From: Perna viridis
Lineage: Eukaryota
Assembly: GCA_037379345.1 (NCBI GenBank)
Contig: CM074518.1
Location: 8,060,001 to 8,124,000 of the forward strand
Direction: 5' to 3'
DNA length: 64,000 nucleotides
The notes below the pieces were generated by a model. That model saw only the letters and a program-made list of their open reading frames with translations, did not search any database and was not told the origin of the DNA. The position numbers and the translations under genes were made by a program. Positions 16,315-63,020 of the stretch are shown here, piece after piece; position 1 is the stretch's first letter, and each line of letters starts with the position of its first letter.

Positions 16315-19300
16315 AAAATGGAAATATCAACAAACTGACATGATACATGTAGACTTATTAGAAAATCATATCATGCCTGTACCATAAATACCAGCATTTC
16401 TAAACCAATTTTCATGTGAAAAATCCACTGATACAGCAGGAGCATCTATATGTCTTATAATTCTAGGTGGGGCATAAAAGAATTTATCAACAGTAAAATG
16501 AACAGTCATAAAAAGGGGTCACAACAGGTATACATAAGCTTTCTAGGACAGACAAAAAGCAAAACCTAAAGAAGAAAAAAGAATGTTTAAAGTAGATTGA
16601 CAGAATCCTTGATTTGAAGATCAAATCAATGGTATTAAACTGTCACTACTGTAAAAATTAAAGTCAGTTCTTGAAGAATTTGTGGTTAGTTTTTCATATT
16701 TAACATGTCAAAATTTTATGTCAGTAATAATAGAACTGTAATAAAAATCATTTCAAAAGTGTTAAAAAGTCAACACACATAACATTAACATGCTAATTTA
16801 TATTCTTAGCTGTTAAAATTATCACTGCAGAAAAACATTAATTTCACACCAAATTTTAAAATTTTACTAAAAAAGAAACTTACATCATAATAAAAATGTT
16901 GCATTTTATCACGACTACTTGCAATCCTTAATAAACATCTAAATAATGGTACACCATCAGAGGCCTTGAGTTAGCTAGTAGTATTATAAGAAAGACAAAA
17001 CTGCTCTGTTACAGTATACAATACACAAGTTATTGTCTACTGAAGAAACAAATGGATTTGTTCTTGTCGACAACACATCCAGATTTACAAAATAGTTTTC
17101 AAACAATTTCATCTTTTGTTGAGCTAAGAACCTCTTTTTCAATACAACCAGAGCTAAAGGGTTTATTGTTGGCAAAGCTGGCATTGTTAAATGGATTTAT
17201 GTTTAGCCTTTTATACTTTTCTACCTAAAACAGTCTCCTGTTGTGTAAAAATTAAAAAGAAATTACAATACATAATTTATGGTATTGTTTCAAGGGTTTA
17301 TGTACAATCAGGTAGAATGGGTTGTATATTACAATGTACATTGATCACTCGTACTGGTACATCAACATCATATGAAATTGTAATGTGTCTTGAAATAAAA
17401 AGGCCATGATTTAAACGGAGTAATTTTCAATTAGGAAGCAAATGCTAATGAAACAAAGAAGCAACACAGCCTCCACAGGTTTTTGGGGGTTAAATTTTGG
17501 CTAGTGTAGCATTGTTCATTTTCATTAAAGTATTTTGACACTGTAAAATTAAAGATTCCATGGCATGGCAGCTGTATATTTGTATTACTTGGCAACAAAT
17601 CAAATACACTTGGTGTGGTGGAAAGCCATGGAAAGTACTGCTTACCACAAAATAAAAAAAACCATTGTAAATCAAAACTAAAATCCCAGCATATAACTAA
17701 CTCCCCCATTCTGAAAACAAACCTCAAAAACATAATTATAAAAACTCACTAAATGAAAATATAACCATTCTTGAATTTTTTTTGGATTTATTATTATAAT
17801 CAAAACTGCATTGTGATGTCAAATTACATAAAAGTAACAGTACAAGTAATGATTATATATTACATCAAACCCACCAAAACAGTAAAAAAAGTAGCATCCT
17901 ATTTAAGAGTTACATGTATTATCATACCCACTCATTTAGACCCTTGTTGATGATAGTTTAAGTAGAGTTTACATAAGAACAGAATTAAATATGAATCAAA
18001 AGTTTATTGTCTTTCACTATAACTACTTCACACAATGAGGCTTTAAGTGATTTTCTCTATAGAACCTGTTCCTTAATTATATATATAAACCTACAGTAAG
18101 TTACATCATCACTCACACCTAAATTGTAAACTTTTGGTTTCATTCTCACATGTTGTGTGTTTGGCTGTATAATGTCATATGTGTCTAGAGGCCACAAAAC
18201 TTCAACATCAAAATTGAAAAAATTACATCTACTCAAACATTAACAATGAGAAAATGCAATTAGAGGTCCAGCCTTGTCTAAACATTTACCTGACCCCAAA
18301 ATTATAGAGGTCAACCTACAACCTTGTCCAAATATTAATATCCACTGGTGCCTTGATGGTGAAAATATCTGAATCTAGCTGTTACCAATCTATTGTGCTA
18401 TGAGCCAATGATAAATAAAGATTGTATAAAGGATACTACTTATTTTCCCTAACAATAAAAGGAAGACCATAAACAATATCATTGGTTTGTCAGTAGGTTA
18501 ATTGACATCCTATTGACTTTATCATCAGTTATAGAACCCCAAGTTTTTCAAAAATTTTCAGCATCCCTGTCGGTGTTTACAAGTTACAGCCTTATAATAT
18601 GTTTTTCCTATTAGACCTTTACAAATAAAAGGGGCCAGTAGATACAGATTCTTTTTTAGTAGAGACCCATTTTTACTTCAACAGTGCTTATTGAAAAATG
18701 ACAAAAATCTTAAGGGTACACTATTTGGGTTGTTAGGGTAAAAGGAAACACACATTTTCCTTAATTCGGCCTTACAGACAATAAAAAGAGCTATGTATAA
18801 TGTAGGTTTTGTGTTTGCCCATTGGAAGACAGAACAACAAAAATGACAGGTTCTAAATTTAGAAGACAGCTGGTATAAGGATGAGAAACTTTGTCCTCTG
18901 ATTATAAATTAAAAAAGTAAAGGAAAAAAAAATTGTTTATGTTGTTGACTTATTTGGATTGTTGATGTTCTCACAGCCTGATACCATTTATTGCTGTAGG
19001 CATTGTAAGTTGGCTTATTTTAAATGAACTGTGATTGCAGTTAAGTTTATAGCTACCCCTGTACTTTGTAGTGAAAATATTTCTCATAATTAAAGTAAAA
19101 CATCCTTGTGTAAAATTAGCAACAGACCATTTGTTGAGCTAGTGACAAGTCAAGCGAGGCTCTTGTTTTTTTTTCACTAAATTTTAGAAATAGTCAACAA
19201 ATTATCAATGATAGAAAATATGTAATTCAAATTAGTACTAGGGAGTTGTCTATCATACAGCAAGGCTATCTAAAGCATGACTAAACAATGTAAGTCCAAC

Positions 19301-21549
19301 TGATGTAACAAAAATACTTCAACCAAAATACAGAAAAAATGATTTTTTTTATATATATGAAGCACTAAATGACACTGTGACCATGTCTAAACCCAGCCTT
19401 AAGTATCCATAATGTCTCATTGTGTCTGTTAGATTCGATTAAAATGCCAATATTGATGGGTAACGCTGGCTGTACTAGACATACAATAACTTTGTATAGG
19501 GATTAGCATATCCCTCAATTGTTTCTCAGAGCAACAATACCCGTTTATAAATACTAATAATAGAATCAAATTACATTGGGTTTACATTAATTCACGCTAT
19601 CTGGTGCACAACAATGTTTGCCTATGTCTGAACAAACAAAGGCATCGAGGAACAATACTAAGATAAAACAGAAAACTTGTACTATTTAGAACCATCCTAA
19701 TCAACAAATTAATTTCTATTCCTTATTGGATCGATAAATATTTTAATTTATCTCTGCGAGGCTTACAGCCTGATTACAAAAAATATACATCCCTTGGCAC
19801 AAGAAAACAATGCAATCGTTGGCCATTAGATGAATCCGTTGAAACCAAATTGTTTAACGGTGTTTACTGGAATTTAATTAATATATGGACATTGAGCTTA
19901 TGTGTTGATCTAAATGATACCCATATTGTCTGGTAAAAGCTTTTTCTTTTATTGTCAAGTTAAGCTGAAGATGACGGGTGACAAAGAGCTGGGTGGAATA
20001 GGTTCGGTCTTTGTTTGGAGAATGTGCCAAACACTATATACCAGTATTGTTCATTAGCTCTAATAGAAAACTATAAATGCATAAAGAGAATAAATAAACC
20101 ACTTTACAAAAAAAATTCAATTAAGTCTGTTTTATTTCTCACCAAATATTGCGTACGAACATGGATATTTTTTGTGGAAAAGTAACTTCTCAGCAGGACT
20201 AACACAATAGCATATCAAATAAAAGGAGTATTAATCTAACAATGTTTAAGCTAAATTTAATTTGTCTGTATAAATGAGCATCGGTTTTTCTGTTAACAAA
20301 GTATGGCTTTTAGAAAAGCATGTTCCTGAAGAGCTCAAGCAAATTATAGTCAGGTTTATTGTAGTATACTGTAGAATAGTTGGACATCACACTTTGAATA
20401 TCAATATGGGCTTTAACACAGGAGATCCATTCAGCAGAAGAAATTGAAAAATAATCAAGTTTATAAAATACCCAAGTTTAATATGTGTAATAGACTCTGT
20501 ATGCATTATATTTACAAAAATAAACAAATAGTTCTCATGTCAACTTGCGAAAATTTGCACAACAAAAGGTAATTGTGCTGAGGATTAGGTGTACAAATGC
20601 ATCGGTAGGAACTCCGAATCTCATTATAAGCTTGTATACACACAGATATAGCATTCTTACACATGGAAAAACTAATTCAAATGTAAATGGCTGACAATGG
20701 GCTTCCCAAACCCCAATCTTTTCACATTTTGTTATGAATTTTTACATATCATTCAATATTTTTTTCACTTCAAAAGGACAAATGACTGATAATACATTTA
20801 GTTGGAGGTTTTGGGTTTTTTTAACTAACACCATGCTTTTGATACCATCTGTAGAGACTGAACAAAGCCTTGGCACTTCATCAAACATGTCATATTCTGA
20901 ACAATATCAGTTCTACCTGTACTTCATCCTGCCACCTGTAGTCGGGAGGAAACTGAATGCATCAAATCACAGGTGAAATAAAGGGAAACAATTTGTAAAA
21001 CACCTTGTCAAATAATCAGGGTAGTTAATTAAATCATTGTCAATATTATGTAAAGAATGGTAATTATTTCATTATGAGTGTTGGTGCATTATCATCAATA
21101 TTTTCTACTACATGTGGTCTGAGAAGTAATCAAAGATTGGTAGTCAAAAGACTCAAGAGCCATCATGAATTGATGACACTTATGATATAAACATAGTAGT
21201 GATTTTTTCAGCCACACTCTTTCAGATACATCAAATTAATACAACTCTTCACTAAATAAGCTAAAGCTAGTTCCACAATCATATTCAATAAATACTTCCA
21301 GGTTTTTTGGGTGGTCCACTTTACAGGTAAATAGCCTGATGTCAGTAACAATTGAATTATTATCAATAATGTGGAGTGTTACTTCCTTAAAGCTAGATAA
21401 AAAGGAGTGAATAAACCATTGGTAACTACTAAATGATGGGATAATAATGCAGGAATGGAGAGATAGAAATAGAATACTTCTTCCTTATATGTTACATGCA
21501 AGTTCCCCTATGCAACTCCAGTAGTTCATTTATAATGGTTCTTCATTTA

Positions 21550-22390
21550 TGGAGGACCAATTTTTCTAAAAAGCATGGTCAGATGGTCCTACATGGATAG
21601 TGGATCAGTTTTTCTACGAAGGATGGTCAGATGGTTCTACATGCATATTGAACCAGTTTTTCTAAAAAGCATGCTCAGATGGTCATACATGCATAGTGGA
21701 CCAGTTTTTCTAAAAAGCATGGTCAGATGGTTCTACATGTATAGTGGATAAGTTACTCTACCAAGCATGGTCAACTGGTCGAACATGTATAGAGATCCAG
21801 TTTATCAACCAAGCACCGTCAGATGATTCTACGTGTATGGTGGGCCAATTTTTCTACCACGCATGGTAAGATGATTCTACATGTATGGTGGGCCAGTTTT
21901 TCTACCATGCATGGTCAGATGGTCCTACATGGAATAGTTGACCAGTTTTTCTACAAAGCATGGTCATATGGTCAAACATGTATAGAGGACCAGTTTCTCT
22001 ACCAAGCACTTGTCTGAATATAGCTGAAATATTGCTGCTCGGACGTTAAACCCCAACAAACAAACAAACATCTACCAAGCACAGTCAGATGGTTCTACAT
22101 GAATAGTTGATCAATTTCCCTACCAAGCATGGTCAGATGGTCAGAAATGTATAGAGATCCAGTTTATCAACCAAGCACAGTCAGATGGTTCTACATTTAT
22201 AGTAGTATAGTTTAACAAGCAAGCATGGTCAGACGGTCCTACATGTATAAAGGACCAGTTTCTATACCAAGCATGGTCATATTGTGGATCATTTTCTATT
22301 CCAAGCATAGTCAGATTGTCCTACAAGTATAGTGGATCAGTTTATCTACCAAGCATGGTCTGATGGGGGATCAGTTTCTATACCAAGCTA
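21550..22390. repeat. 48-bp diverged minisatellite (about 16 copies)
   Basis: Unit approximately accagtttttctaccaagcatggtcagatggtcctacatgtatagtgg. Interrupted at 22010-22070. Confidence 0.9.
22010..22070 (+). mobile_element. 61-bp 5'-truncated SINE/LINE 3' tail with (AAAC)n end and 12-bp TSD
   Basis: atagctgaaatattgctgctcggacgttaaaccccaacaaacaaacaaaca flanked by tctaccaagcac at 21998-22009 and 22071-22082. Confidence 0.8.
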
Positions 22391-22874: not shown

Positions 22875-23043
22875 TGCTCCCAGTTTTTAGTGGAGTTGCT
22901 CATTTACTTTTGTTACTTTGTATATATTATTTTAGTGACTTTGTGTTGTTTGTTATGTTTATCTGTTTTCCATGTCTGGTCTTTGTCTTTTGATAACATT
23001 CCTTTGATTTTTGCTAGAATCTTGGTTCCCTTGATTACTCCTT
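22875..23043 (+). mobile_element. Dispersed ~210-bp repeat family A (retroelement-like, unassigned), 5'-truncated copy
   Basis: Homologous to 47935-48145 (+) and 62810-63020 (-): ctcccagtttttagtggagt...gttcccttgattactc. Confidence 0.8.
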
Positions 23044-37000: not shown

Positions 37001-37369
37001 TTTTTGATCAGATGAAAGAAAAGTAATTTTTGTTTGTTACTTAGTTAATTACTATTCACACATAAATCCAAAAAGAAATATTTTGTTCATAACTTTGTGG
37101 TTTTTTTGTGATTATCAAAATAAGTAGCATTTGATGTGACTTTTATCTGCCACTAATGAGTAAGAATAGAATCATCTGGAGGTGTCAAGCGGTACTTCAT
37201 CTTGAGGTGAAAGAAAATGTTTGTGTGGTTGTGTGTGTGTGTGTGTGTGGGGGGGGGTGATTCTAGACTATTTGATATGGATGTTGATACATTTATATTC
37301 ATCATTATTTCAATACAAGATACAAATGCTTTAAAGTTCACATAATTAACACATTGCAAAGATGCCTAA

Positions 37370-38937
37370 CTCCTGGTAATACAGGACCTCTGTAAATTAT
37401 TCCCCATAAAACAACCACTTCTGGTAACTATTCCCCCTGATACAAGGACTTCTGGTAACTATTCCCCATAAAACAAGGACTTCTGGTAACTATTCCCCCT
37501 GATACAAGGACTTCCGGTAAATATTCCCCATAAAACAAGGACTTCTGGTAACTATTCCCCCTAATACAAGGACTTCTGGAAACTATTCCCCATAAAACAA
37601 AGACTTCTGGTAACTATTCCCCCTGATACAAGGACTTCCGGTAACTATTCCCCATAATACAAGGACTTCTTGTAACTATTCCTAAAAAATACAAGGACGT
37701 CTGCTACTATTCCTAAAAATGCAAGGACCTCTGGTAACTCTTTTTGATAATACAAGGATTTCTAGTAACTAATCTCCCTGATATAAGGAGTTCTGGTAAC
37801 TATTCCTAAAAATACATGGACCTCAGGTAACTATTTTCCATAATACAAAGACTTCTAGTAACTATTTTCCATGATACAGGAACTTCTAGTAACTATCTCC
37901 CATGATACAGGGACTTCTGGTAACTATTCCCCACAACACAAGGACTTCTGGTAACTATCTCCCATGATACAGGGACTCTAGTAACTATTCCCCATAACAC
38001 AAGGACTTCTAGTAACTATTCCTAAAAATGCAAGGCCCTCTGATAACTATTTTCCATAATACAAGGACTTCTAGTAACTATTTTCCATGATATAGGGACT
38101 TCTTGTAACTATTCCCCAAAATAAAGGACTTCTAGTAACTATCTCCCATGATACAGGGACTTCTGGTAACTATTCCCCATAATACAAGGACTTCTGGTAA
38201 CTATTCCTAAAAAATATAAGGACTTTTGGTAACTATTCTTAAAAATGCAATTACCTTTGGTAACTATTCCCCATAATACAAGGACTTCTGGTAACTTTCC
38301 CTAAAAAATACAAGGACTTCTGGTAACTTTCCCTAAAAAATACAAGGACTTCTGGTAACTATTCCCCATAATACAAGAACTTCTGGTAACTATTCCTAAA
38401 AATACAAGGACATCTGGTAACTATTCCTTAAAAATACAAGAATGTCTGGTAACTATTTTACATAATACAAGGACTTCTGGTAACTGTTTTCCATGATACA
38501 GGGACTTCTAGTAACTATCTCCCATGATACAGGGACTTATAGTAACTATTCCCCATAACACTAGGACTTCTGGTAACTATCTCCCTGAAACAGGGACTTC
38601 TAGTAACTATTCCCCATAACACAAGGACTTCTAGTAACTATTTCTAAAAATACAAGGACTTCTTGTAACTATTCCTAAAAAATGCAAGGACCTCTGGTAA
38701 CTATTTTCCATAATACAAGGACTTCTAGTAACTATTTTCCATGATATAGGGACTTCTGATAACTATTCCCCAAAATAAAGGACTTTAGTAACTATCTCCC
38801 ATGATACAGGGACTTCTAGTAACTATCTCTGATGATACAGGGACTTCTGGTAACTATCTCCCATGATACAGGGACTTGTAGTAACTATCTCCCATGATAC
38901 AGGGACTTGTGGTAACTATTCCCCAAAATACTGGGAC
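37370..38937. repeat. ~31-bp minisatellite (about 50 copies)
   Basis: Unit acaaggacttctggtaactattccccataat and variants. Confidence 0.95.
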
Positions 38938-39509: not shown

Positions 39510-40830
39510 ATACCCATTCCTTGTAATACAGAAACTGTATTGTATTGGGAATGGGGTACCTATTCCATGTTGCAATGGGTCTGTATAGTATTGGGGATGG
39601 GGTATTCCCTGTAATACAGAAGCTATATAGTTATTGGGCATGGGGTACCTATTCCTTGTTATACTGGGTCTGCATTGTTATTGGGCATGGGGTACAACTT
39701 CCCTGTTATACTGGGTCTGTATTGTATTGGGGATGGGGTATTCCCTATAATACAGAAACTATATAGTTATTGGGCATGGGGTACCTATTCCTTGTTATAC
39801 TGCGTCTGTATTGTATTGGGGATGGGGTATTTCCTGTAATACAGAAGCTATATAGTTATTGGGCATGGGGTACCTATTTCTTGTTATACTGGGTCTGTAT
39901 TGTTATTGGGCATGGGGTACAAATTCCCTGTTATACTGGGTCTGTATTGTATTGGGGATGGGGTACATATTCCCTGTTATACTGGGTCTGTATTGATATT
40001 GGGCATGAGGTACCTATTCCCTGTTATACTGGGTCTGTATTGTATTGGGGATGGGGTACATATTCCCTGTTATACTGGGTCTGTATTGTATTGGGCATGG
40101 GGTACCTATTCCCTGTTATACTGGTTCTGTATTGTATTGGGCATGGGGTACCTATTCCCTGTTATACTGGGTCTGTATTGTATTGGGCATGGGGTACCTA
40201 CTACCGGTTACATTGGGTCTGTATTGTATTGGGCATGGGGTACCTGCTACTTATTATACCGGGTCTGTATTGTATTAGGCATGGGGTACCTATTCCCTGT
40301 TATACTGGGTTTGTATTGAATTGGGCATGGAGTACCTATTCCCTGTTATATTGGGTCTGTATTGTATTGAGCATGGGGTACCTATTCCCTGTAATACAGA
40401 AGCTATATAGTTATCGGGCATGGGGTACCTATTCTCTGTTATATTGGGTGTGTATTGTATTGGGCATGGGGTACCTGCTACCTGTTATTCTGGGTCTGTA
40501 TTGTATTAGGCATGGAGTACCTATTCCCTGTTATACTGGGTCTGTATTGAATTGGGCATGGAGTACCTATTCCCTGTTATATTGGGTCTGTATTGTATTG
40601 GGCATGGGAAACCTATTCCATGTTATACTGGGTCTGTATTGAATTGGGCATGAAGTACCTATTCCCTGTCATACTGGGTCTGTATTGTATTGGGCATGGG
40701 GTGTTCCTCGTAGTACAGAAGCAGTCTTGTTATTGGGCATGGAGTACCTATTTCAACTGTATCATTATTTGGCATTGAGTACCCATTTCTGGTATCATAG
40801 GTACTGTATCATTATTGGGCATAGAGTACT
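39510..40830. repeat. 46-bp minisatellite (about 29 copies)
   Basis: Unit ttgtattgggcatggggtacctattccctgttatactgggtctgta. It is the source of the ORFs at 39545-40778. Confidence 0.95.
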
Positions 40831-41474
40831 ATATTTGGAACATAGTCAAAATAATTACTTGTAGTATCTTTACATACTAATAAATTTGCCTAAATACAAG
40901 AAATTGATACACAAGTGTTGTCAAAAAATGTTTGATAAGAAATTTGGAACAATTACCTCTGTCTATGGCTTACCACATTGGCCACATGCATATAGAAGTA
41001 TTCTGTTTATGATTGGCAGGTCTCCCAGCATCAGTGGTCCCTGGATAATGTTTATGATAATCCATAGGAAGAAGGACTCCATTATATGGCCTGTAATTGG
41101 TCTGTTGTCATTATTTTCATTTCTCATTCTGTAAATTTCAATTAAAAATTTGAATAAGTTAAAATCATTATTAAACCCTTGACTTCAGAAGCAGTAGTCT
41201 GTTTCTAAACACAATACAAAGAAGTCACAAATAAAACTGTGGAATAGACCCTTTTACGCTAACAGTTGAGTTATTTATGAGAGTACTAATAATAAACATT
41301 TCCATTCAGAAATTTCTTATGTACTACCTCAGGCCCTGCCTTATGGAAGTATATGTCACACTTGTTCATCGACTAACCATCATCTATTACCATTGTAAAG
41401 TTAATCTGGATGGACATCAATAGATCTGGCTGAAAATGACCATTAACTGCAAAATAAAGCAAATACTATGGAGT

Positions 41475-47829: not shown

Positions 47830-48335
47830 AGAACAGGTTTTTGGTTTGTTATGAAAGGTTAATTGTTTATTCATTGTTTCGTTTAGGCAGGAACCTGGTT
47901 TACTCAAGATTTGGTTTAAACAGGTCTCCAGAAAAGCAGAGGAGGCTTACCCTACCAGAGCACCTGGTCCATGCTCCCAGTTGTTAGTGGAGTCTGAGTT
48001 GCTCATATCCTTTTGTTACTTTGTATGTATTATTTTATTAACTTTATGTTCTTTGTTGTGTATGTCTGTTTTCCATGTCTGGTCTTTGTCCCTAGATTAC
48101 ATTCTTTTGATTATCGCTTGAATTTTGGTTCCCTTGATTACTCTTTATTTAAGGTAATGTTAAGACAGTTTAATTGTTTTTCAGGGTTTGATTTAGACAG
48201 GTATCTGGTTTATTCAGGGATAGGTTCAAACTAGTTCCTGGTATTTTGAGGTTTTAGTTCAGACAAATTTATAGATATTCTAGATTGGTTTAGACAGGGT
48301 TTATGGTTTAGTCAGGGTTTGGTTTTGACAGACTA
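47830..48335. repeat. Degenerate (ttcagggtttggtttagacagg)n array, probably MITE-internal, split by a family-A insertion
   Basis: Motif recurs on both sides of 47935-48145. Confidence 0.6.
47935..48145 (+). mobile_element. Dispersed ~210-bp repeat family A, full-length copy
   Basis: agcagaggaggcttaccctaccagagcacctggtcca...gttcccttgattactctt. Same ends as the 62810-63020 copy. Confidence 0.85.
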
Positions 48336-49914
48336 CTCTGTATAATAGAATAATTTTCTACTGTTACATCACAACAGTAACTGACTACTTGTTGCCTAAA
48401 GTCAGGTATGCACCAGTATCCACTCAAGTAAAGTGAAAATGAAAGGAGTTCAAAGACCTCAACACTATCAGATGAAATGTTGACTGGTTTAAAAGGATAC
48501 CAGTTTAAAGTCCTACTGATGAATGTGGCACTGTAAAGAACATTGAGTGCAGGAACGTTCTAACACACCTGAGAATATCAATTTATACAATAAATCATGA
48601 GACAAAACCAATGATGTAAGCAGACCTCAAAAATAAATTTTAATGCACATTAAACCAACCAAACATTTAAAACATCAAAAAAAACAGTATCTTAGTCCGC
48701 ACCTATTAACTTTCAAAACTCCCTTTCGTAAAATGAACAAAGTATTTTAACAAAACCCAACCCTGACAAAACGTTTTTGGATGGTTGGACAATGGATCAC
48801 AAAAGAATCAAAGAAATTGGATTATCATAACCAAAGTATAATTATTTAATGATTCTGCTAGTTCTCATTGTCATGTAGAAGGAGGGTTCAGAGATGGTTC
48901 TAAACACTTGTCACACACAATAGAAAAATGACAATGCATTTTTAATAATAGTAAAAGTATAACATAAACAAATTTCATTAAAGATTGTTTAAGATTAATA
49001 GATTCAAACTTCAAAGGTGTTGACAAAAATAAAATTTAATCAAAATAAAATTACTAAAAAACTATGTGATATCCATTTGTATTCTCCCCGTGTATTATAT
49101 TTGGCAGGCTTTTACATGTTACAGAAAACAACAGTGCTCATCTTAGTAGTCCACAAAAGATTCAAAATCAGTGGAAAAAGAAACTTAATAAATATAGTTA
49201 ATAAAATATGAATTTATTACACCACCCCATGGGCACTCATTCAATGTGATTTGGACCGTGAGTGAATACATAGCGGGATAACAGTAAAATTGAAAATCCA
49301 AAAGTCTTAAAAATCCTAATGGATGTATGAGAGATATGAATAGATGATATAAAACATCTTTATAAATTCTGGCTATTTATACAAGGTCTGATTCCTTCAT
49401 TATATTACTAAATGTCACTTATGAAGCACAACCATTTAAAGTGCAGTTAACTTCCAAAGCCCTTCTCTCACATTATTAACTGAACAATTGTCCACGGCAA
49501 AAAATTAGTGTAAATATAAGAAAAGTTCTCAATTCAGCATTGAAGTTATGAGACTGAGAGATACACATTAGATATGGCTGCAAGTTAGAATTGTATATCT
49601 TGTAAAGGTATATTTTGATCAGGTGTACCCAATTAAATATCACACAAGTTCATTCATGAGTCCAGTTCTAATTCAGTATTGGTTAATTGTTTTAGTTCCA
49701 GTGAACATTATAAGTATTACAGCACCATTTCCACCAGCAAACATATTTTTAAAAATTAATTAGTCACAAGTAAAACCTTATCAAATATTCATAACATTGT
49801 TTTTTTGTAGAGGTGATTTAGAAACTCTGCATATGAATGTATAGTGTGTATTTTGCAGCATCAGTTTCATCTGATTGTAGCAAACCATAACCTGAATACA
49901 CCAATTTCTGCAAC

Positions 49915-50285
49915 ACTACACAACACATAAAATCTAAAACATTCACAACAATCACAACATCCATAACATACATAAAATCTTTAATATTCACAGCATTCAC
50001 AACATCAACAACAAATTAGCAAAATCCACTGTATTAACAACATTCACAGTATTCACAACCTTCACAGCATTCACAACATCAACAACAAATTAGCAAAATC
50101 CACTGTATTAACAACATTCACAGTATTCACAACCTTCACAGCATTCACAACATCAACAACAAATTTACAACATCCAAAACATACACAATATCCATAACAT
50201 TCAAAACATTTACAACATCTACAGTATTCATAACATACATAGCATTCACAACATCCACTGTATCAAAAAATTCACATTTACAGCA
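49915..50285. repeat. AC-rich ~9-bp periodic repeat with a ~74-bp higher-order duplication
   Basis: acaacattc/acagtattc/acagcattc units. The block starting near 49989 recurs near 50063. Confidence 0.8.
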
Positions 50286-51511
50286 TTAAAAAATGTTAAT
50301 CAATCACAATACCTTATTGATTTCTTCATGTTTTAATGCTTTATTTACCCAAGAGGTCCCAGCCTGAACATTAGGGACAAGTATGGACACTATATTTGAT
50401 CTTGGTACACACCCAACAAGACATGTATGATACAAAACAAATGGAGTCATAGAACATAAAAAAAGAAAGTTTAAACCTATATGGTCCAAAATTAAAAAGA
50501 TAAATTCAGCATATCAAAGAACCACAAGCACTCAAATTATGTTGAAATCACACAACGTTAATTTTCAACCCATCGGACCTCAATATGGGCAAGTTTAAAA
50601 CAGGGTCCAACATCCAAAATCTTAATATAAACTAAAATCACTCAGAGCATAGAAACAAACAGATACCCCCAGCACCCCTATGATATATATACACACATAT
50701 ACTTTTTAGAAATTCCATATAATTTAATTCTTCCAGTAAAACTACACATTAAACTTACTCAAATCAGAAGTTTCGTATCAGATGCACAAAAGTGTCATAT
50801 AAGTGTTTGCCAGTAACAGAGTCATTACTGCAAAGTGAAATATTAATTACAAGAAAAGTCATTCAGACAGACAAAGTAGAAGATCTAATAATCATTTCTA
50901 AACATTTTCAAAACAATAGAAGTAGGGTCAAAATGGGAATACCTACCAACTATCTGATTGTAAAGTTCATGTTATGTCAATTGTTCCATGAAATTTATTC
51001 AGATAAAATAGCGAAGTATCAAGTATACAATAGCATTATATAATTATTATTCACTTAGGGATTCATAAAAATCCTTCTAAAAAGTGTAACGGAGGAAGCA
51101 ACAGACTGACGTCTTGATCACTATATACTGCCCCATTTTAAGCGAGGGGTATGTAAATCTAAACACCTACTCAGCTAACAGATCATTCTTTTAAAAAAGC
51201 AACACTTCCAATTTAACGTCATTGAAACTGGTAAGGAAACAAGGAATTCATTCAAAATTTTATAAAATGCCTACATTTATAACTGACCTAATTATGATCC
51301 CTTATTCTTAAATGGAATGGACCATAACTCAAATCAAATTCCATATCTTTCTTCTGCGGTGTGAAACCTTATGGCAAAATGCTATAATTTATGTTATGAA
51401 AACAAAATGCCAACACGCATCAATGATGACAGCACCATCAAGTTTTTTTTTCAAAACTCAAAAATAAATGTAGATAGGACAAATGCCATTGTCATGACAT
51501 GCATCATTAGC

Positions 51512-52083
51512 AAGTATCTGGCTAAGAGCAGTGCAGTTAGAATAAATGTCCTAGTCATGCCATGAGTTATCGCCAAGTACCTGACTAAAAGCAGAGCAGT
51601 TAGAATAAATGTCCTACTCATGCCATGATTTATTGCCAAGTATCTAACTGAAAGCAGAGCAGTTAGAATAAATGTCTGAGTAATGCCATGCGTTATCGCC
51701 AAGTATCTGACTAAAAGCAGAGCAGTTAGAATAAATGTCCTAGTCATGCCATGAGTTATCGCCAAGTACCTGACTAAAAGCAGAGCAGTTAGAATAAATG
51801 TCCTACTCATGCCATGATTTATTGCCAAGTATCTAACTGAAAGCAGAGCAGTTAGAATAAATGTCTGAGTAATGCCATGCGTTATCGCCAAGTATCTGAC
51901 TAAAAGCAGAGCAGTTAGAATAAACGTCCTAGTCATGCCATGCGTTATCGCCAAGTATCTGACTAAAAGCAGAGCAGTTAGAATAAATGTCCTAGTAATG
52001 CCATGAGTTATTGCCAAGTATCTGACTAAAAGCAGAGCAGTTAGAATAAATGTCCTAGTTATAGCATGCATGATCAGCAAGTA
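51512..52083. repeat. 63-bp minisatellite (about 9 copies) with a duplicated 189-bp trimer
   Basis: Unit aagtatctgactaaaagcagagcagttagaataaatgtcctagtcatgccatgagttatcgcc, giving the 21-aa period in ORF 51451-52080. Confidence 0.95.
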
Positions 52084-52604
52084 TATGTGAATTGACTTAA
52101 ATCAATGATTTTATCCTAAATTCTACATTCAGGCTACTGATATGTGACTTAAGCCTGTTATCATGTAATTTTTTGAGTGGAAGGTTAGTAATTTAAGGGC
52201 AACTTTTATCACAAAGCTATCATTTGTGTTTTTCCAGGGAATTTTTTTTATCACAAAACATTACAAAAAACCTATTTGGCATGAGGAAGAATAGACCTAT
52301 AAAGATTATATATTTATACATACATGCATATGAAACATTAATTTAACTTAAGGACAAGTTTTTTCTATTGTCACCAAGTTTAAAGAGCTAATAAGTACCT
52401 ATAGAATCTTGATATCTCCATAGAAGTCATGCTTTTAAAATTCTATGACAATAAAACACACCATAAATAAAGTTTTAATTTCTACTTTACAATTCATATT
52501 GTTCATTTCTTTCTACAAGAGAAAGGGTAATCTGATTAACAATTTTATAGCCTGTCATAAAATGCATCTCAATCAACTGGCTGATAGACATGGCAAACAA
52601 TGCA

Positions 52605-53473
52605 AAATATACCAAGGGTAAACACAGGACACAATGTACCTAGGATAGACACAGGCACACAATATACCCAGGGATGATCAGGGCAAAATTAAACCCTCGG
52701 GTAAATCCTGGGCACAATGTATATAGGGTAGACACAGGGCACACAATATACCCAGGGAGGATCAGGGCAAAGTTAAACCCTCGGTAAATCCAGGGCCCAA
52801 TGTATATAGGGTAGACACAGGGCACACAATATACACAGGGAGGATCAGGGCAAAGTTAAACCCTTGGGTAAATCCAGGGCACAATGTATATAGGGTAGAC
52901 ACAGGGCACACAATATACACAGGGAGGATCAGGGCAAAGTTAAACCCTCGGGTAAATCCAGGGCACAATGTACATAGCGTAGACACAGGGCACACAATAT
53001 AACCAGGGAGGATCAGGGCAAAGTTAAACCCTCGGGTAAATCCAGGGCACAATGTATATAGGGTAGACACAGGGCACACAATATACCCAGGGAGGATCAG
53101 GGCAAAGTTAAACCCTCGGGTAAATCCTGGGCACAATGTATATAGGGTAGACACAGGGCACACAATATACTCAGGGAGAATCAGGGTACAAGTTAAACCC
53201 TCGGTTAAATCCAGGGCACAATGTATATAGGGTAGACACACTATATAACACAACATACCAGGGGTAAACACAGGAGAACAATGTATATAGGAAAGACACA
53301 GCAGAAAATACCAAGGGTAAACACAAAACACAATGTACATAGGGTAGACACAGGACACAATATACCAAGGCTAGACACAGGGCACCATATACTGAGGATA
53401 CACACAGAGGCACAATATACCACAGGTAAACACAGAATAAAATGTAAAAAGGGTAGACACAGGACACAGTATA
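52605..53473. repeat. ~28-bp satellite family with 84-bp higher-order units (left of the transposon)
   Basis: gggtagacacagggcacacaatatacccagggaggatcagggcaaagttaaaccctcgggtaaatccagggcacaatgtatata repeated about 7 times, then diverged monomers. Confidence 0.93.
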
Positions 53474-53944
53474 GGCTAAAAACCACTAATTCAGTTTCCC
53501 ATTGCTCCCTATGTTAAATTGACCATTTTCAAAGGCTTCTCAAATATTTACCTTAACTTTAACCTGCTCATAACCATATATCACCTGAAACCTACATGTA
53601 TCAGGGTATCTCAGTCAAGAGGAAACAAGGGGTTAGCAGACTTGCAGTGAAGCACTGTCATTCGGAACTCACCCACCCCTAAAAATAGTAACTGGAATTC
53701 TCAATTTTCTTTATTTAGCCACTCTTTGTTTACATTTCAAAAAAATAACTTATATCTATCAAAAGTAGGCAAATTTGGGCTCAAAATGATCAAAATGAAT
53801 TTATCTTTCAGCAGAAGTTCCATTTATGTAAAAATGATTCCTAGATTTTGTATAATAGCATGACAAAGGGACTATTTTTTTGTTTGCGTAGGACTTTTTT
53901 TGCGTACGTTCCAAAGTTGATGATGCAATTGGTGGTCTGTAACC
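53474..53944 (+). repeat. Left long terminal direct repeat (LTDR1), 471 bp, with its own imperfect 18-bp TIRs
   Basis: Identical to 57168-57638 except A53830 vs G57524. Starts GGCTAAAAACCACTAATT and ends AATTGGTGGTCTGTAACC (reverse complement GGTTACAGACCACCAATT, 14/18 match). Followed by TAAA. Confidence 0.97.
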
Positions 53945-54639
53945 TAAAGAACACCTTTTCTGCTTTCAAACTTGTTTTTATTGCATCTACCACATAGTAC
54001 GGAACTTGCGATATGAAATTTCAAGTTTTAAAAATTTTCGTTAAGGATTTTTCGAAAAATGGCTCAAAATATGAAGGTACCTTATATTGGCCTGAACAGT
54101 AATTTTACAGTGAAAATAGTCATATGTGGTAGGGTTCATTACATCCCATTTTTGAACTGAAAATGGCTTTTTACTCATTTTTTTTGCAATTTAGACTGTT
54201 CAGTATATATTAAAGTTGTAATTAACATCTTGTTTTTGACCATAGCAAAATTTAAATTCTGTAAAATTTAATTAAAATTTGAAAATTAACTAATTTTTTT
54301 CCAAAATTTTATGTTTTTGGCATAAATTAAATGCTTTTTGGATAAAAAATATTGAAAATAAGGATAAAATATGAAATTTCATTATCTTTTAAATAATTTA
54401 AAACCCAGGTAGATAATATATTCCTTATAACATGCCCCCAAGAGATTTCTAATCAGATACCCATATAAATGGCATTTTATGGCTTTCACAGGGGGGGATG
54501 CCAGGTGTGGTCTGCAATTTGAAATAATTATAAATTTCCTGTTTAATTAGCAGTTATTTAATACACAGAGTAGTTGTTCTTGTATTTCATGCCAAAAAAT
54601 TTCATTTAAAAGCAGTTTTAGTAAGAGTGAAGGCAGGAA

Positions 54640-56583
54640 ATGAGCCGCAAGCGGAAACTTATTGGTAAAAAATTTGGATATCAGGAAGGAAATACTCCTA
54701 TTCATAAGGGTAAGAAACTTAAATATGAGCCCAAAAATGACCCTGAGCCTCTTATGAGATTACCTCATACTGTTTATGAATCTAGAGTAAGTCAAGGTAG
54801 TGACAATGTTCTGGAAATCCATGACACTGACCAGTCCCTTTGCACTCCCATGCTGCTGCGGCCACGGCCAAAAAGTCCTGAGTTACTTGATGAATATCTT
54901 GAGCCAAATGTCTCTGATCCAGACAACCACACATATAAACATTACATTCCCTCTCTTGTAAGCATACTGTGGAATACTACAATAAAAGAGCATATAGTTG
55001 AAAGTAATGGTTGTGACGGTGACTTAGATTTTGACTCTAATGCAGCCAAAAAGTGGGGTTATGCATGGAAAGAGAGATTAAAATGTAACAAATGTGGTTT
55101 TAGAGGCCAGTTCTACAAACTGTATTATGAAGTAAATACTACTAAGCCAGGTAGAAAGGCAGCAACTCTAAATATGGCTTTACAGGCAGGGTTACAAACA
55201 ACTCCCATATCAAGCAAGAGCTATAGGGATATAAGCATAACTTGTAACATTATCCCTCCTAATCTATCTGGCATGCAAAAACTTGCAAATAGGGTTGGAA
55301 CTGTAATTGTTAGGTACAATGAAGGTGATATGAAAGAAATAAGGGAAGATATTGTAGCTGAAAATGAGATGGTTGGTCACTCAAACCCTACTTATGTGAA
55401 TGTTGAATCAGATGGTCGCTTCAATAATCGCATTTATAATAGTGACGTGACTGCATTTCAAGGTGGTACGCAAGTTGTCCAAACTATAGTTGAAAATAAT
55501 TCCTCGCTTAAGAGAATTATTAGCGTGTTCACTGGTAATAAGCTATGCAGAGTTGCATCTCGGTTACGAAACAAGGGTATTGAAGTATCATGTCCTGACC
55601 ATGCTGGGTACTGTTCAGCTAACTTGGCTGAAGATGATGCAATAGGTAATGAGGCTGTATATGTTAGAAAATGCACTATTCAGTTGAATGATGCATTGCA
55701 AGTTAGGCATATTACTACTGATGGTGATAGCAAATCTGCTACTGGTGTAGAAAAAGCTCAAAGAACAAGTGTACATGTACTTAAAGATGTTAGACATCTA
55801 TCAATTGGTATCAAAAGAGCTGTGCAAAAGTATACATTCAGCCCATCCATGTTTACTGGTCCTAATAAGAGAAACCTTAAGCACCGTTTTAGTATGGATT
55901 TAAAAACTCGCTGCGTTGCAGAACTAAACAAAGCTTTTGAAACACACAAGGGTGAACTTTTTGAAATAAAACACCATATGCCAACCGCTATCAAAGCAAT
56001 TATAAAATGTTATAATGGAGAATGCGGTACGGCATGCCAAATTCATTCTTATGTGTGTGCTGGTCTATCCTCTAATAAGTGGAAAAAGGGTTTTCTGCCT
56101 GACAATGAGGTTATAAATATGAATGATGAGGATGAAGTCATGGTAGAGAATTGTATTAATGTACTTTTAGGGCCTAAAAGTCTTGACTTAGTACGTTTTC
56201 TTACCTCGACCCAAAAATGTGAAGCGTTTAATCGCAGTCTGCAGAGGTGTAATCCTAAAACAGTCACTCATAGTAGAAACTTCCCAGGTCGTGTACATAC
56301 TGCGGTACACTTAAGTAATCACAAGTTTGGTAATTCAACCTTACTTCGTACAAAGATACTTGGTGTTGAGCTTACACATGGGTCATCTGTTATCAAACAT
56401 CTGAAACAAAATCAGAAAGCTGAAGTATATGGTAGACAATATAAAAAGCTAAAGAGCACAAAATGTCTAAGGTCTAGAACACGTCAAAGGAAATATAACT
56501 TACATGCGACAAAAAACTACCAGGTTCATTATAGAAAGGGTATTTCTGACCCAAAAGTGCCAAAGGCAAAGCCCAGTACTTAG
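54640..56583 (+). CDS. DDD/E transposase, Kolobok type (Mutator-like transposase domain), 647 aa
   Basis: Single uninterrupted ATG ORF. Candidate catalytic triad D258 (NVESDGRF), D361 (ITTDGDS) and E528 (TQKCEAFNR), plus a DxxH motif (D383-H386). Likely Zn-binding clusters H118/C125/C149/C152, C303/C318/H321/C325 and C457-C473. Basic NLS-like N- and C-termini. Confidence 0.9.
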   Translation: MSRKRKLIGKKFGYQEGNTPIHKGKKLKYEPKNDPEPLMRLPHTVYESRVSQGSDNVLEIHDTDQSLCTPMLLRPRPKSPELLDEYLEPNVSDPDNHTYKHYIPSLVSILWNTTIKEHIVESNGCDGDLDFDSNAAKKWGYAWKERLKCNKCGFRGQFYKLYYEVNTTKPGRKAATLNMALQAGLQTTPISSKSYRDISITCNIIPPNLSGMQKLANRVGTVIVRYNEGDMKEIREDIVAENEMVGHSNPTYVNVESDGRFNNRIYNSDVTAFQGGTQVVQTIVENNSSLKRIISVFTGNKLCRVASRLRNKGIEVSCPDHAGYCSANLAEDDAIGNEAVYVRKCTIQLNDALQVRHITTDGDSKSATGVEKAQRTSVHVLKDVRHLSIGIKRAVQKYTFSPSMFTGPNKRNLKHRFSMDLKTRCVAELNKAFETHKGELFEIKHHMPTAIKAIIKCYNGECGTACQIHSYVCAGLSSNKWKKGFLPDNEVINMNDEDEVMVENCINVLLGPKSLDLVRFLTSTQKCEAFNRSLQRCNPKTVTHSRNFPGRVHTAVHLSNHKFGNSTLLRTKILGVELTHGSSVIKHLKQNQKAEVYGRQYKKLKSTKCLRSRTRQRKYNLHATKNYQVHYRKGISDPKVPKAKPST

Positions 56584-56706
56584 TGTACAATGCCTGTGTG
56601 GTTAACTGGTGTAGTTACCTCCCTTACTGTGATGTAAATAGTGTAAATAATTAGTACATGTTTAGACTTGTTGTACAGAAATAATGTGTGATATGTTACC
56701 TTTACC

Positions 56707-57087
56707 CTATAAAATGCAATCATAATATGGAGAATGTTTTGCACAGTGAGTGGGTACAAGGCCGCGACAGTGTTCACGGTCCTTGTTGACCTGCTCCGGC
56801 TCAAGGGACAAATTTTCCACATTAATGCACCTCCTATTATGACATCTATGTGATACTTGCATGCTTTTAGGTAGTTCAAAATTCTTGGTAAACAACATAA
56901 ATGCAAATCTATGAGTATATATTGTCTTTTTATCTCTTTTCCAGGGAAAAGTTACAGTTAGTGTGGAATATCTTCTGCCCCCTCCCCCTAATTTACACAA
57001 AATGCATCCTTTAGCCCCTTGAGCCTCAGAATTGGCCAAAAGTCTTTCTTTTTGAGCTTCAATCCACTTGTCTTGATCCATTTTCAT
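56707..57087 (-). CDS. His-Me finger / His-Cys box homing-endonuclease-like protein (I-PpoI family), about 126 aa
   Basis: SHRCHNRRCINVENLSLEPEQVNKDREHC aligns without gaps to I-PpoI [29 protein letters not shown]. Upstream GC and YTHR motifs and a C-terminal C..H..C cluster are present. The ORF-track start at 57099 is TTG; the first ATG is at 57087. Confidence 0.88.
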   Translation of the reverse strand: MKMDQDKWIEAQKERLLANSEAQGAKGCILCKLGGGGRRYSTLTVTFPWKRDKKTIYTHRFAFMLFTKNFELPKSMQVSHRCHNRRCINVENLSLEPEQVNKDREHCRGLVPTHCAKHSPYYDCIL

Positions 57088-57167
57088 AAGATATTTCAAG
57101 AAAAATCTAATTCAGAAGGTACAAGTTATTTTTAATGTCAAGGCTGCACGTGCAATTTCCCAGTTAA

Positions 57168-57638
57168 GGCTAAAAACCACTAATTCAGTTTCCCATTGCT
57201 CCCTATGTTAAATTGACCATTTTCAAAGGCTTCTCAAATATTTACCTTAACTTTAACCTGCTCATAACCATATATCACCTGAAACCTACATGTATCAGGG
57301 TATCTCAGTCAAGAGGAAACAAGGGGTTAGCAGACTTGCAGTGAAGCACTGTCATTCGGAACTCACCCACCCCTAAAAATAGTAACTGGAATTCTCAATT
57401 TTCTTTATTTAGCCACTCTTTGTTTACATTTCAAAAAAATAACTTATATCTATCAAAAGTAGGCAAATTTGGGCTCAAAATGATCAAAATGAATTTATCT
57501 TTCAGCAGAAGTTCCATTTATGTGAAAATGATTCCTAGATTTTGTATAATAGCATGACAAAGGGACTATTTTTTTGTTTGCGTAGGACTTTTTTTGCGTA
57601 CGTTCCAAAGTTGATGATGCAATTGGTGGTCTGTAACC
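57168..57638 (+). repeat. Right long terminal direct repeat (LTDR2), 471 bp, with its own imperfect 18-bp TIRs
   Basis: Direct copy of 53474-53944 at offset 3694. Preceded by TTAA (57164-57167) and followed by TAAA. Confidence 0.97.
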
Positions 57639-58935
57639 TAAACCAATGAAGGATCAGGGAACACATTAACTGGTTAACACAAGGCATAATGTACATTGGG
57701 TAAACACAGAACACACTATACCAAGGGTAAACAAAGGGCACAATATACCAAGGGAAAATAAAGTACACAATGTCCATATGGTAGACACAGGGCACAAGTA
57801 CATAGGGTAGACACTGAGCACACAATATACCACAGGTAAACACTGGACAAAATATACACAGGGTAAATACAATAAAATATACCAAGGGTAGACACAGGAC
57901 ACAATGTACATAGGTTAGACACAGAGCACAAAATTCACAGGATAGACACAGGGCACACAATATACCACAGGTTAAACACAGGACACAATGTACATAGGGA
58001 AGACACAGGACACAATGTTCATAGGGTAGACACTGGCACAATATATCAAGGGTAAACACAGAACACATAATATATCAATGGTTAACAGAGGGCACAATGT
58101 ACATAGGGAAGAAGCAGAGCACAATATACGAAGGGTAAACACAGGGCACAATGTACATAGGATAGAAACATAACACAATATACCAGGGGTAAATGTTGGG
58201 CACTACATGCATTGGGTAGACACAGAATACAATTTATGGAGGTACAGGTCACAGATTAAATCCTTGGGTCAACAAGGTCACAATGTATATAGGATATACA
58301 TAGAACACACTATACCAAGGGAAGAACAGGGCACACATTAAAAACCTAAGGGTAAACACAGAGCAATGTAAACAGGGTAGACACAGAACACAATATTTCC
58401 TAGAGTAAACACAGGGTACAATGTACATAGGGTAGAGATAATGATAGACAGGGTGCAATGTATACAGGGTAGAGATAATGATAAACAGAGCATATTTTAA
58501 ACACAATATAAATGATACGCAGGGTACAGTGTACACAGGGAGAAGATAATGAAAGATAGGACCCAGTGTTCACAATCTTGACAAGGTAGAGATAACGATG
58601 GGCATTGTACTGATAATGAAAGACAGGGCACAGTGTATACAGGGTAAAGATGATGATAGACAGTGTACAGTGTACACAGGGTAGAGATAATGATAGACAG
58701 GACAGTGTACACCAGTTAGAGATAATGATAGACAGGATACAGTGAACACAGGGTAGAGATAATGATAGACAGGATACAGTGAACACAGGGTAGAGATAAT
58801 TATAGACAGGGCACAGTGTACACAGGGTAGAGATAATGATATTCAGGTTACATTGTATACATGTTAGAGATAATGATAAATAGGGTACCATGTACACAGC
58901 AAAAATATGGTGATAGGCAGGGCACAGTGTAAAAA
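57639..58935. repeat. Continuation of the ~28-bp satellite, changing near 58420 into a 37-bp derivative
   Basis: gggtagacacaggacacaatgtacata units, then gggtagagataatgatagacagggcacagtgtacaca units. Confidence 0.9.
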
Positions 58936-59050
58936 GGGTATAATATATAATAATATAAATTCCTTATTTAAAAGAAGGTAACACAGTTAGCAATAAAATA
59001 TATCAATCTCCCTTGTGGCCTTCACAAATACGAACAAAATAATAATAGTA

Positions 59051-59628
59051 AACAAGATGCTCCCAGGAGTCTGAATCGCTCACCTGGTTAAAATTTGTCT
59101 TTCAGGGGCAATAAATTTAAAAAGGAGTCGTCCAACAATTTTGACTCAAGAAGACTTTGGCAGGACTGTCATAAGGATGATTTCAGCGACCAAAAGTTAC
59201 TTTCTATCTATTTCAGTTTTCTAGATTCTTGCTAAAAACTGTAAAAAAGTCATTTTTCATCTTTCAAGGGCAATAACTCTTACAAGGAGTGGCCTCACAA
59301 CTTTGATCCCTGAAGACTTTTGAAGGCCTTATAATAAGGGTCGTTTCAGCAATTGAAATAATTTTGCTATATTTTGGAGATATATGCGAAAAACTACTGT
59401 CTGACCCCTATGTTCTATTTTTAGTAATGGCTGCCACGTTTTTCAACAGATCAAAAATCCCCATATCCGTATTATGCAGGATACCCCAAGGAACATTCAT
59501 ACCAAGTTTGGTTCCAATTGGTTGACTAATGTCAGAGGTGAAGAGTTTTGAAAAATTGTTAACAACGACAACGACGATGACGATTGACACCAAGTAATGG
59601 GAATAGCTCACATGGCCTTCGCCTAAAA
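59051..59628. mobile_element. HINE-like (Helentron-associated) non-autonomous element
   Basis: Starts aacaagatgctcccaggagtctgaatcgctcacctgg. Has two ~162-bp internal repeats and a (GAC/AAC)n microsatellite. Ends atagctcacatggccttcgcctaaaa. Homologous to 61875-62488. Confidence 0.7.
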
Positions 59629-59753
59629 TTAATAATAAAAACAATACATAAGTATTTATGCATACATATGATTATTATTCTGAAGTATATATATAAATAA
59701 GATATTATACAATACAATTTGTAACTAAGTACCTTCATTTTCTTGCTGATTTA

Positions 59754-60388
59754 GTAGAGATCATGATCGACAGAGTACAGTGTACACAAGGTAGAGATCA
59801 TGATCGACAGGATACAGTGTACACAAGGTAGAGATCATGATCGACAGGATACAGTGTACACAAGGTAGAGATAATTATAGACAGAGTACAGTGTACACAA
59901 GGTAGAGATCATGATTGACAGGATACAGTGTACACAAGGTAGAGATCATGATCGACAGGATACAGTGTACACAAGGTAGAGATCATGATCGACAGGATAC
60001 AGTGTACACAAGATAGAGATCATGATCGACAGGATACAGTGTACACCAGGTAGAGATCATGATCGACATGATACAGTGTACACAAGATAGAGATCATGAT
60101 CGACAGGATACAGTGTACACAAGGTAGAGATCATGATCGACAGGATACAGTGTACACAAGATAGAGATAATTATAGACAGAGTACAGTGTACACAAGGTA
60201 GAGATCATGATTGACAGGATGCAGTGTACACAAGATAGAGATAATTATTGACATAGTACAGTGTACACAAGGTACATATCATGATCAACAGGATACAGTG
60301 TACACAAGGTAGAGATAATTATAGACAGAGTACAGTGTACACAAGGTAGAGATCATGATTGACAGGATACAGTGTACACAAGGTAGAG
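59754..60388. repeat. 37-bp minisatellite (about 17 homogeneous copies)
   Basis: Unit gtagagatcatgatcgacaggatacagtgtacacaag, related to 58420-58935. Confidence 0.96.
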
Positions 60389-61874
60389 TAGGGGTAAAAC
60401 AAATCAAAAATAGAAATATTGTGAGCACATCTGTGGACACCCCTGTTCCAATTAAACATGTTTAACTCTTATCATATTTGATAATCCATCTAAGTACAAC
60501 TATCTTCCTTTAAGCATATCTACATATAATGTACCTTCCTTACAAGATTTTAAATTCTAATGTAGAATGAGTTGTGCTTAGTAGTACAGATAGACAGACA
60601 GATAGGCAGGGTGAATCCTTTCCCCTCCCAAATGGAAAAAAGAGGGTATGATATATCATAATCTGATGATATCATAGAAAGACTTCTTTTTATTATACTC
60701 CAAATCTATGGAATCATGAAACTGTCAACAAAATCCTTGATTTAATAACCTAAAAACTTTTTTCTTCACAACAATAAAATCAATCACTATTTTACAAATC
60801 AATCCATCTAAATCTAGAATTTCTGCCAATTGTTAGAGAAGAAAAATTAGAATTTCTAAAATCACTTGTTAACAAAGCTCAGTGAAACAATCTGACGTTG
60901 ATAGCCGATTTAATTCTCCTCAAATCCACGCTTCACGACAAACAATACATAGGAGAATGTGCTTTTTAAGATAAATTACTATAGTTATTGCATGCACTTT
61001 CGTTAACAATAGTAATACAATTACTCAATCAACTGGCGCTGATCTGGATTTTAATTACGGGACGGAGTTCCGACGTGACATGCAAAGTCAATTAATTGTT
61101 GAAATCACGAGGAAATAGCACCTTCTAACAATCACAATTCATTTGAAATTTACAAAAAAACTTAAGCTTTGAATTCAATTAATCGAAAAAGACGAGCTAT
61201 TGACATTTTTGTTCATTACTCGTATCAACTGAAACAACACAGGAATAATTAAAACATACAAAACAGAAAAATATCAATAGTATATATGGAGAAAAACGTT
61301 TACCCAACATCACAACTCACTATCAATACAGCACATAATAGGCAAACTTCATTAAACAAAATTAAATTCTATCACAAACAAAGAGATGTAGCTATGAACT
61401 TTCAAGGATCAAGAAAGCAAATTCATGTGCAGAATAAAAAAATTTAAACTTTGTCCTAATTGTTGATGAGCACAATCTTTCAGTTACATTTGCATGCACT
61501 AGTTTTTTTGTTATATTTAATTTAAAGATAAACTAAATTTACATTTTCAAATGGCAAAGGACCAACAAGTACAATACATGGCATCATTCTGTACAGTTTA
61601 CTAAAAATGCAGAGCCAGCCTGTACAAAATAGCTTATATGTTAACAACTAATTAAAGTGCAGTGTTCTTACAGTTCCCTATAAATCACCAAGTTTAGAAG
61701 GGAAAGAAGAATAGATCCAATTACAATATATTACTTGATCACAAGGATGGAAAGCAGATATATAAAAATTAGGGCATTAATGGAACATAAAGTGACAGCC
61801 CAACACATAATGCTGAATAAAGAGCTGTGTCATGAGCACCTAATACGCCTGTTGGCTGAGCATGAAAACAGAAA

Positions 61875-62488: not shown

Positions 62489-62809
62489 CTTCTCCCTATT
62501 TTATGAAAAAGTGCCATAAAAAGAAAACATAAAATTGAAATTTTATAGGAAACAAAAGGGAGCTTATGACCATGAATACAAAAAATATCTTACAGTTTCA
62601 TGACATTTGCTGAAACCATTTTCCAGTTAGAGTATGTATGTATAAAAATGTGCCAAAAATTAAATAACGTGAAATTGAAATTTTATTAAAAAAAAAAAAA
62701 ATGGTGCCTCTGACCATGGATACAACGAATAGCTCAAAGTTTCATGGCCTTGGCTGAAATTGTTTTTTAGTAAAAGTGCAAAAACAGTAAAAAAACAACT
62801 TTTTTATGA

Positions 62810-63020
62810 AAGAGTAATCAAGGGAACCAAGATTCTTGCAGAAATCAAAAGAATGTAATCCAGGGACAAACACCAGCCATGGTAAACAGACATACACAAC
62901 AAAGGACATAAAGTAACTAAAATAATACATTCAAAGTAAAAAAAGTAAATGAGCAACTCAGACTCCACTAAAAACTGGGAGTGTGGACCAGGTGCACCAG
63001 TAGGGTAAGTGTCCTCTGCT
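62810..63020 (-). mobile_element. Dispersed ~210-bp repeat family A, full-length inverted copy
   Basis: Reverse-complement homologue of 47935-48145. Confidence 0.85.

Follow-up and report, generated by a model that had tools for sequence, protein, structure and literature searches.

An intact KolobokP transposon in Perna viridis and genomic footprints that fit staggered cutting at its direct-repeat ends

A 64,000-nucleotide stretch of the Perna viridis genome (CM074518.1, positions 8,060,001 to 8,124,000; hereafter the window) carries an intact element of LTDR-INT-LTDR layout, 4165 bp in span, which is a young autonomous KolobokP transposon (Table 1). Its outer flanks, TATA and TAAA, form an imperfect duplication in which the right one is identical to the inner tetramer TAAA, and this mismatch is one case of an inner tetramer found at an outer flank. 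It is proposed that LTDR ends, inner and outer, are probably cut with a stagger of four bases that would carry the flanking tetramer along with the released DNA. A non-autonomous sister family with the same TIRs gives good support for use of the inner ends.

Table 1. Features of the element, in window positions.
Feature	Position	Strand	Remarks
Left outer TATA, probably the genuine target site	53470..53473	+	flanking repeat: CACA[AG]TATACC nine times, CACA[AG]TAAACC never
LTDR1, 471 bp, GG...CC termini	53474..53944	+	18-bp imperfect TIRs, 53474-53491 and 53927-53944
Doubled subterminal TTTGCGTA (53883-53890, 53899-53906)	53883..53906	+	starts at 53883 and 53899
Inner tetramer TAAA, INT start	53945..53948	+	same start in sister family and in published KolobokP-1_BaPl-I
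Internal region (INT), 3223 bp	53945..57167	+	
DDD/E transposase, 647 aa, intact frame	54640..56583	+	Pfam PF20700 Mutator-like, E 2.8e-48
His-Me finger (I-PpoI-like) nuclease, 126 aa	56707..57087	-	Pfam PF05551, E 3.7e-11; I-PpoI chains, E 0.002-0.004
Inner tetramer TTAA, INT end	57164..57167	+	
LTDR2, 471 bp, single difference from LTDR1 at 57524	57168..57638	+	
Right outer tetramer TAAA, the same as the inner tetramer and not the TATA target; likely donor-end carry-over	57639..57642	+	

The two equally long LTDRs differ at 1/471 positions; the G at that position, 57524, is an A in contigs of all four sequencing runs compared, and the G may reflect a private mutation or an error in the assembly. 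Each LTDR starts with GGCTAAAAACCACTAATT and ends with AATTGGTGGTCTGTAACC, a 14/18 inverted match with GG..CC termini whose chance probability is about 1e-5 (200,000 draws of the LTDR's own letters), and each has near its right end two of the four occurrences of TTTGCGTA in the whole window. This doubled motif is a possible transposase-binding repeat; the sister family's commonest right end retains a doubled TGCGTA block despite diverged LTDR middles. The 471-bp repeats, their 14/18 inverted match, the doubled motif and the TATA, TAAA, TTAA and TAAA flanks had been described in a first-pass annotation and were recovered on recomputation. The annotation also took TWWA, which makes up 4.4% of all tetramers in the window, to mark element ends; this is true of the four window flanks but not as a rule, since four of six near-identical insertions have non-TWWA duplications, so that TWWA is better regarded as a preference. 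For the window copy itself, the likely target is TATA, because the surrounding repeat holds the TATA form and never the TAAA form (Table 1). An LTR retrotransposon was ruled out by GG..CC rather than TG..CA ends and by two long ORFs with no RT or integrase domain, and INT as a separate TIR element by an inverted match of only 4/18 just inside the tetramers. The window is rich in tandem repeats (14311-16367, 21469-22383, 37310-38937, 39511-40834, 49914-50276, 51398-53473 and 57653-60493) with periods of 9, 27, 31, 34, 37, 46, 48, 49, 63 and 84, the 27-bp repeat being the one broken by the element, and its remaining ORFs of at least 120 aa all lie inside such repeats. It also contains three copies, 86-88% alike, of an interspersed 150-210 bp repeat (22893-23043, 47935-48146 and 62809-63020, the third inverted).

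KolobokP is a lineage of Kolobok DNA transposons named by Kojima and Bao in 2022 (PMC9587614). Its hallmarks are a pair of LTDRs, about 450 or 660 bp long (470-473 bp in some listed families), flanking INT, 11-18 bp TIRs with RR..YY termini on the LTDR, a TSD of 3-5 bp, a direct-strand DDD/E transposase with C/DxxH and two zinc fingers, and a His-Me nuclease on the opposite strand (PMC9587614). LTDRs with their own TIRs, solo LTDRs, multimers, LTDR excision and INT-INT junctions that retain one TATA have all been published (PMC9587614), and the idea of a mobile LTDR is therefore not new. The window element has the two 471-bp LTDRs around a 3223-bp INT, the GG..CC termini with a 14/18 match, a transposase recognized by its PF20700 match and by residues read by eye, and the opposite-strand PF05551 nuclease; its near-identical relatives include two solos and a 12-unit array. 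Its outer flanks are TATA/TAAA, while the TSDs of its siblings are perfect and 4-6 bp long in four of five cases and of the form TAAA+TSD in the fifth. The Kolobok identity assigned by the first-pass annotation is thus borne out by layout, transposase and nuclease. No match to the TIR strings of the window family was found in the PMC9587614 supplements searched, indicating that the family is probably unlisted, and we regard the element as a real, intact and probably unlisted member of the known KolobokP lineage. The two long ORFs hold transposase and nuclease domains only. Candidate transposase residues, read by eye, are D258, D360/D362, D383xxH386 and E528, with two Cys/His clusters (C303/C318/H321/C325 and C457-C473, also by eye), and a sequence search for a solved relative returned none. 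The nuclease retains the equivalents of S97, H98, E114 and N119 of I-PpoI and has N at the position of H110, a residue counted in the His-Me motif (PMC9587614).

The element's own family, defined as LTDRs of at least 99% identity among 40 scored candidates, comprises 21 LTDR copies: 13 in the 12-unit array, those of three monomers, and two solos. The outer flanks of its insertions are TAGA/TAGA, TGCTA/TGCTA, TAGT/TAGT, TCTATA/TCTATA, TATA/TAAA+TATA and, in the window, TATA/TAAA, so two of the three monomers have a right TAAA against a left TATA, in one of them as TAAA+TATA. The annotation viewed LTDRs as separable units, which agrees with the two solos, each with its own TSD, in this family and with LTDR-less INT-INT junctions in the sister family; such junctions were also sought in the autonomous family itself and none was found. 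INT starts adjoin an LTDR in 15/16 cases. The sixteenth INT (L031, G000:C6:42648376-42650488) is older and internally deleted, begins exactly at TAAA without a left LTDR, and has a truncated right LTDR downstream. The array (G000:C15:3911939-3957002) has a single TAGA TSD and accounts for 12 of the 15 INTs that are intact; about 266 bp are duplicated within one of its units. An empty allele was sought in run X4, where one contig aligned from 57642 on and then became repeat-like; since no X4 contig covered the left flank, the empty-allele signal is weak.

Much larger numbers are available from relatives. The left TIR pattern has 6701 matches genome-wide against none in a reversed control, and nearly all of those inspected are non-autonomous. 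The main such relative, the high-copy sister family, has an LTDR of 467 bp and an INT of 873 bp, and matches the window element in both TIRs, in the doubling of the subterminal block and in the inner tetramers TAAA..TTAA. An INT-INT junction pattern gave 291 matches, against six in the reversed control, of which 184 contain exactly one tetramer (TTAA or TAAA) and 107 are other than single-tetramer joins; the 184 junctions are not 184 events, as unequal crossover multiplies array junctions. At 30 loci checked over 150 bases, an INT end lies upstream in all 30 and an INT start downstream in 29. The first 100 joints listed comprise 41 TTAA, 36 TAAA, 11 TTCAAA, 8 TTAAA, one TTAATAAA and one TTAATTAAA, with two probably due to chance; exactly both tetramers are present in one only, and the joints fall into 24 clusters, five of which include both single-tetramer types. 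One-tetramer joints are the expected remnant of two mismatched 4-nt overhangs rejoined, and recombination is unable to make them. At one locus (G000:C2:47814455-47826640), 15 INT-INT junctions without an LTDR follow one another every 869 bp, with TTAA and TAAA mixed, forming an INT-only tandem repeat.

The outer flanks give a second footprint. Among sister-family-type insertions of the first two contigs with both ends inside the retrieved DNA, one flank tetramer was chosen and the other flank was read. With TATA on the left, the TSD is perfect in 69/80 insertions, the right flank is TAAA in 5 and another sequence in 6. A clean TSD is lacking in 39/50 insertions with TAAA on the right (sampled as TAAA then A or T, a filter that enriches the TAAA+TSD class) compared with 2/23 with TAAA on the left (Fisher p 2e-8), and conversely in 19/33 with TTAA on the left compared with 1/22 with TTAA on the right (p 4e-5), 10 of the 19 owing to a right flank of TAAA. 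TAAA and then the tetramer of the left flank stand on the right in 17/40 cases, compared with 3.3 by permutation, and none of 20,000 permutations reached 17. Mismatched copies and those with a perfect TSD are of similar identity, and the asymmetry persists at or above 96% identity. Neither point mutation nor age explains the mismatched TSDs, TAAA making up 5 of the 11 non-TSD right flanks opposite TATA (p 0.001 against a single-change rate of 1 in 12). A circle spacer is disfavoured as the main source of the extra tetramer, because a spacer would reach both ends, yet each tetramer keeps to its own side, TAAA to the right and TTAA to the left. Individual loci include one with the variant TACA at inner and outer right ends alike (L179), two with foreign tetramers, TAAC+TATA (L164) and TCGA (L105), one flanked by TTTA/TAAA+TTTA (L382) and a possible INT-end variant (L342); the last two leave the direction of the asymmetry as it is. 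No description of inner tetramers at outer flanks was found in the main text of PMC9587614, while lines for KolobokP-1_MeMe (inner tetramer TATA) in its Figure S3 look similar by eye.

These results bear on whether inner ends are still used, as the annotation supposed: the sister family upholds this with its 184/291 junctions and side-specific flanks, whereas no INT-INT junction was found in the own family. That absence is what would be expected if the inner ends were inert, with solos and arrays produced by LTDR recombination, inner tetramers surviving as fossil TSDs and mismatched flanks reflecting point mutations, and recombination does account for solos and arrays with perfect TSDs. It is unable, however, to delete an LTDR together with exactly one tetramer, and it leaves the side-specific TAAA/TTAA flanks of young copies unexplained, so that inert inner ends, contradicted for the sister family, seem very improbable to us. 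By the annotation's own criterion its reading would fail if the inner TWWA tetramers were not conserved among relatives, but by-eye counts on published consensus INTs of PMC9587614 show conservation: starts have T in 30/30 and TWWA in 24/30, and ends have A in 28/29 and TWWA in 19/29, counts that are not independent as the families are related. This conservation can also be explained by monomers cut out of arrays, since every array end is an inner end and 12/15 intact INTs sit in one array, such that array excision could impose the constraint.

In the staggered-cut model, any left TIR could pair with any right TIR, and a whole element, an array unit or a lone LTDR would be released. The two overhangs at the donor gap would rejoin, with a TTAA/TAAA mismatch resolved to one or the other; at the new site the 4-nt flap would mostly be trimmed to give a perfect TSD, and if untrimmed would replace one target copy (TATA/TAAA) or precede it (TAAA+TSD). 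The donor of the window copy would have had a right end adjoining an INT, most simply in the family's tandem array. Several points weigh against this explanation: most insertions have perfect TSDs (69/80 with left TATA), the counts that carry most weight belong to the non-autonomous sister family while INT-INT junctions are missing from the own family, recombination alone can produce solo LTDRs with a perfect TSD, and Muta1, a related MULE transposase, makes hairpins on flanking DNA and not on the element (PMC5499845). The same flanks could arise after insertion, if two like-oriented LTDR ends were cut with a stagger, INT and an LTDR dropped out, perhaps in circular form, and the overhangs were annealed or filled and joined. 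Both products, TAAA replacing the TSD and TAAA+TSD, would then be expected, fill-in easily explaining the second, and LTDR-INT circles have been proposed (PMC9587614). Such a deletion requires pairing of two ends in direct orientation, still requires inner-end cutting, and offers no source for the foreign tetramers of L164 and L105, which fit carry-over of an outer donor flank (though the cases are few and deletions are possible there); we consider it unlikely. Alternatively, the His-Me finger nuclease and not the transposase might make the staggered cut at the LTDR-tetramer boundary, with the transposase trimming and integrating, and untrimmed ends giving TAAA+TSD. The likeness to I-PpoI, whose 4-base 3' TTAA overhang is noted in PMC9587614, points this way, and a 3' TAAA extension would yield TAAA+TSD directly, but free variation of the outer flanks past the tetramer is more in keeping with cutting directed by the TIRs than with a 15-bp homing site, and the equivalent of H110 is N, leaving this role for the nuclease quite doubtful. 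A staggered transposase cut, a later deletion and a nuclease cut each entail cutting at inner ends.

Joins between LTDRs are less decisive. Twenty LTDR-tetramer-LTDR junctions at about nine loci (8 TAAA, 9 TTAA, 2 TTGA and 1 TGTA) fit either inside-out use or insertion beside an existing LTDR, and two loci with an intact outer TSD and an inner TAAA (L421 and L373) would fit precise loss of INT or insertion beside an LTDR. Public-run contigs contain end-to-end LTDR joints with TATA, TCTA, TTCA or TTTTA spacers, two of them at depths of about 5x and 10x the single-copy flank; the end-to-end TATA joints are absent from the assembly, and tandem copies in other animals could account for these joints, as could sister-family ends or circles. 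At another locus (L297/L298, G000:C1:57190849-57190894) two LTDR right ends are joined tail to tail across TTAA.

Extending the staggered-cut model, we put forward more tentatively, as possible rather than probable, that KolobokP moves as a linear piece with a 4-nt overhang at each end, that seamless excision of the piggyBac kind has arisen by convergence in a transposase of the MuDR/hAT/P group, that every LTDR end in an array is live, and that new sites acquire the inner tetramer of the donor in a sizeable minority of cases. If so, inner tetramers at insertion sites would be a genomic record of the end used. The element class and the mobile LTDR have already been published; what is added here is a quantitative genomic footprint of end cutting, none having been found in the literature searched, where no biochemical study of a Kolobok transposase was found either. 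A 2026 review describes the KolobokP nuclease model as still awaiting experiment. With intact, near-identical copies and two distinguishable inner tetramers, the family is a ready substrate for work on the cutting mechanism of KolobokP, on the mobility of single LTDRs and on the role of the nuclease.

Compared with known systems, the window element resembles other KolobokP members in layout, LTDR class (about 450 bp), RR..YY termini, 18-bp TIRs, gene strands, solos, multimers and one-tetramer INT-INT junctions, and differs in that its inner tetramers, TAAA and TTAA, are unlike each other, which makes the fate of each traceable. KolobokP-1_BaPl (4169 bp, LTDR 470, TSD 4, TIR 20) looks related: it is close in size, its INT starts with taaaga and, compared by eye, it has several LTDR blocks in common, although the TIRs are unlike (ggtgtgaaacctataatt against ggctaaaaaccactaatt). 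In function alone, piggyBac shows a similar 4-bp T..A target preference, one tetramer left at excision and asymmetric TSDs at mismatched sites; it produces a 4-nt overhang with seamless excision (PMC7351741) and an asymmetric TSD at a non-canonical site (PMC8717057), and the genomic footprints reported here would fit a 4-nt stagger. It belongs to another superfamily, however, whereas the window element has RR..YY ends, a Mutator-like transposase domain, long direct repeats and a relaxed target, the TAGA, TAGT, TGCTA, TCTATA and TATA sites departing from the strict TTAA of piggyBac. Bacterial composite transposons and the copy-out circles of IS3 and IS256, the latter being the kind of circle to which PMC9587614 leans, likewise involve two direct-repeat units with their own TIRs, mobile singly or jointly (PMC9587614), but the transposase of the window element lies in INT and not in the repeats.
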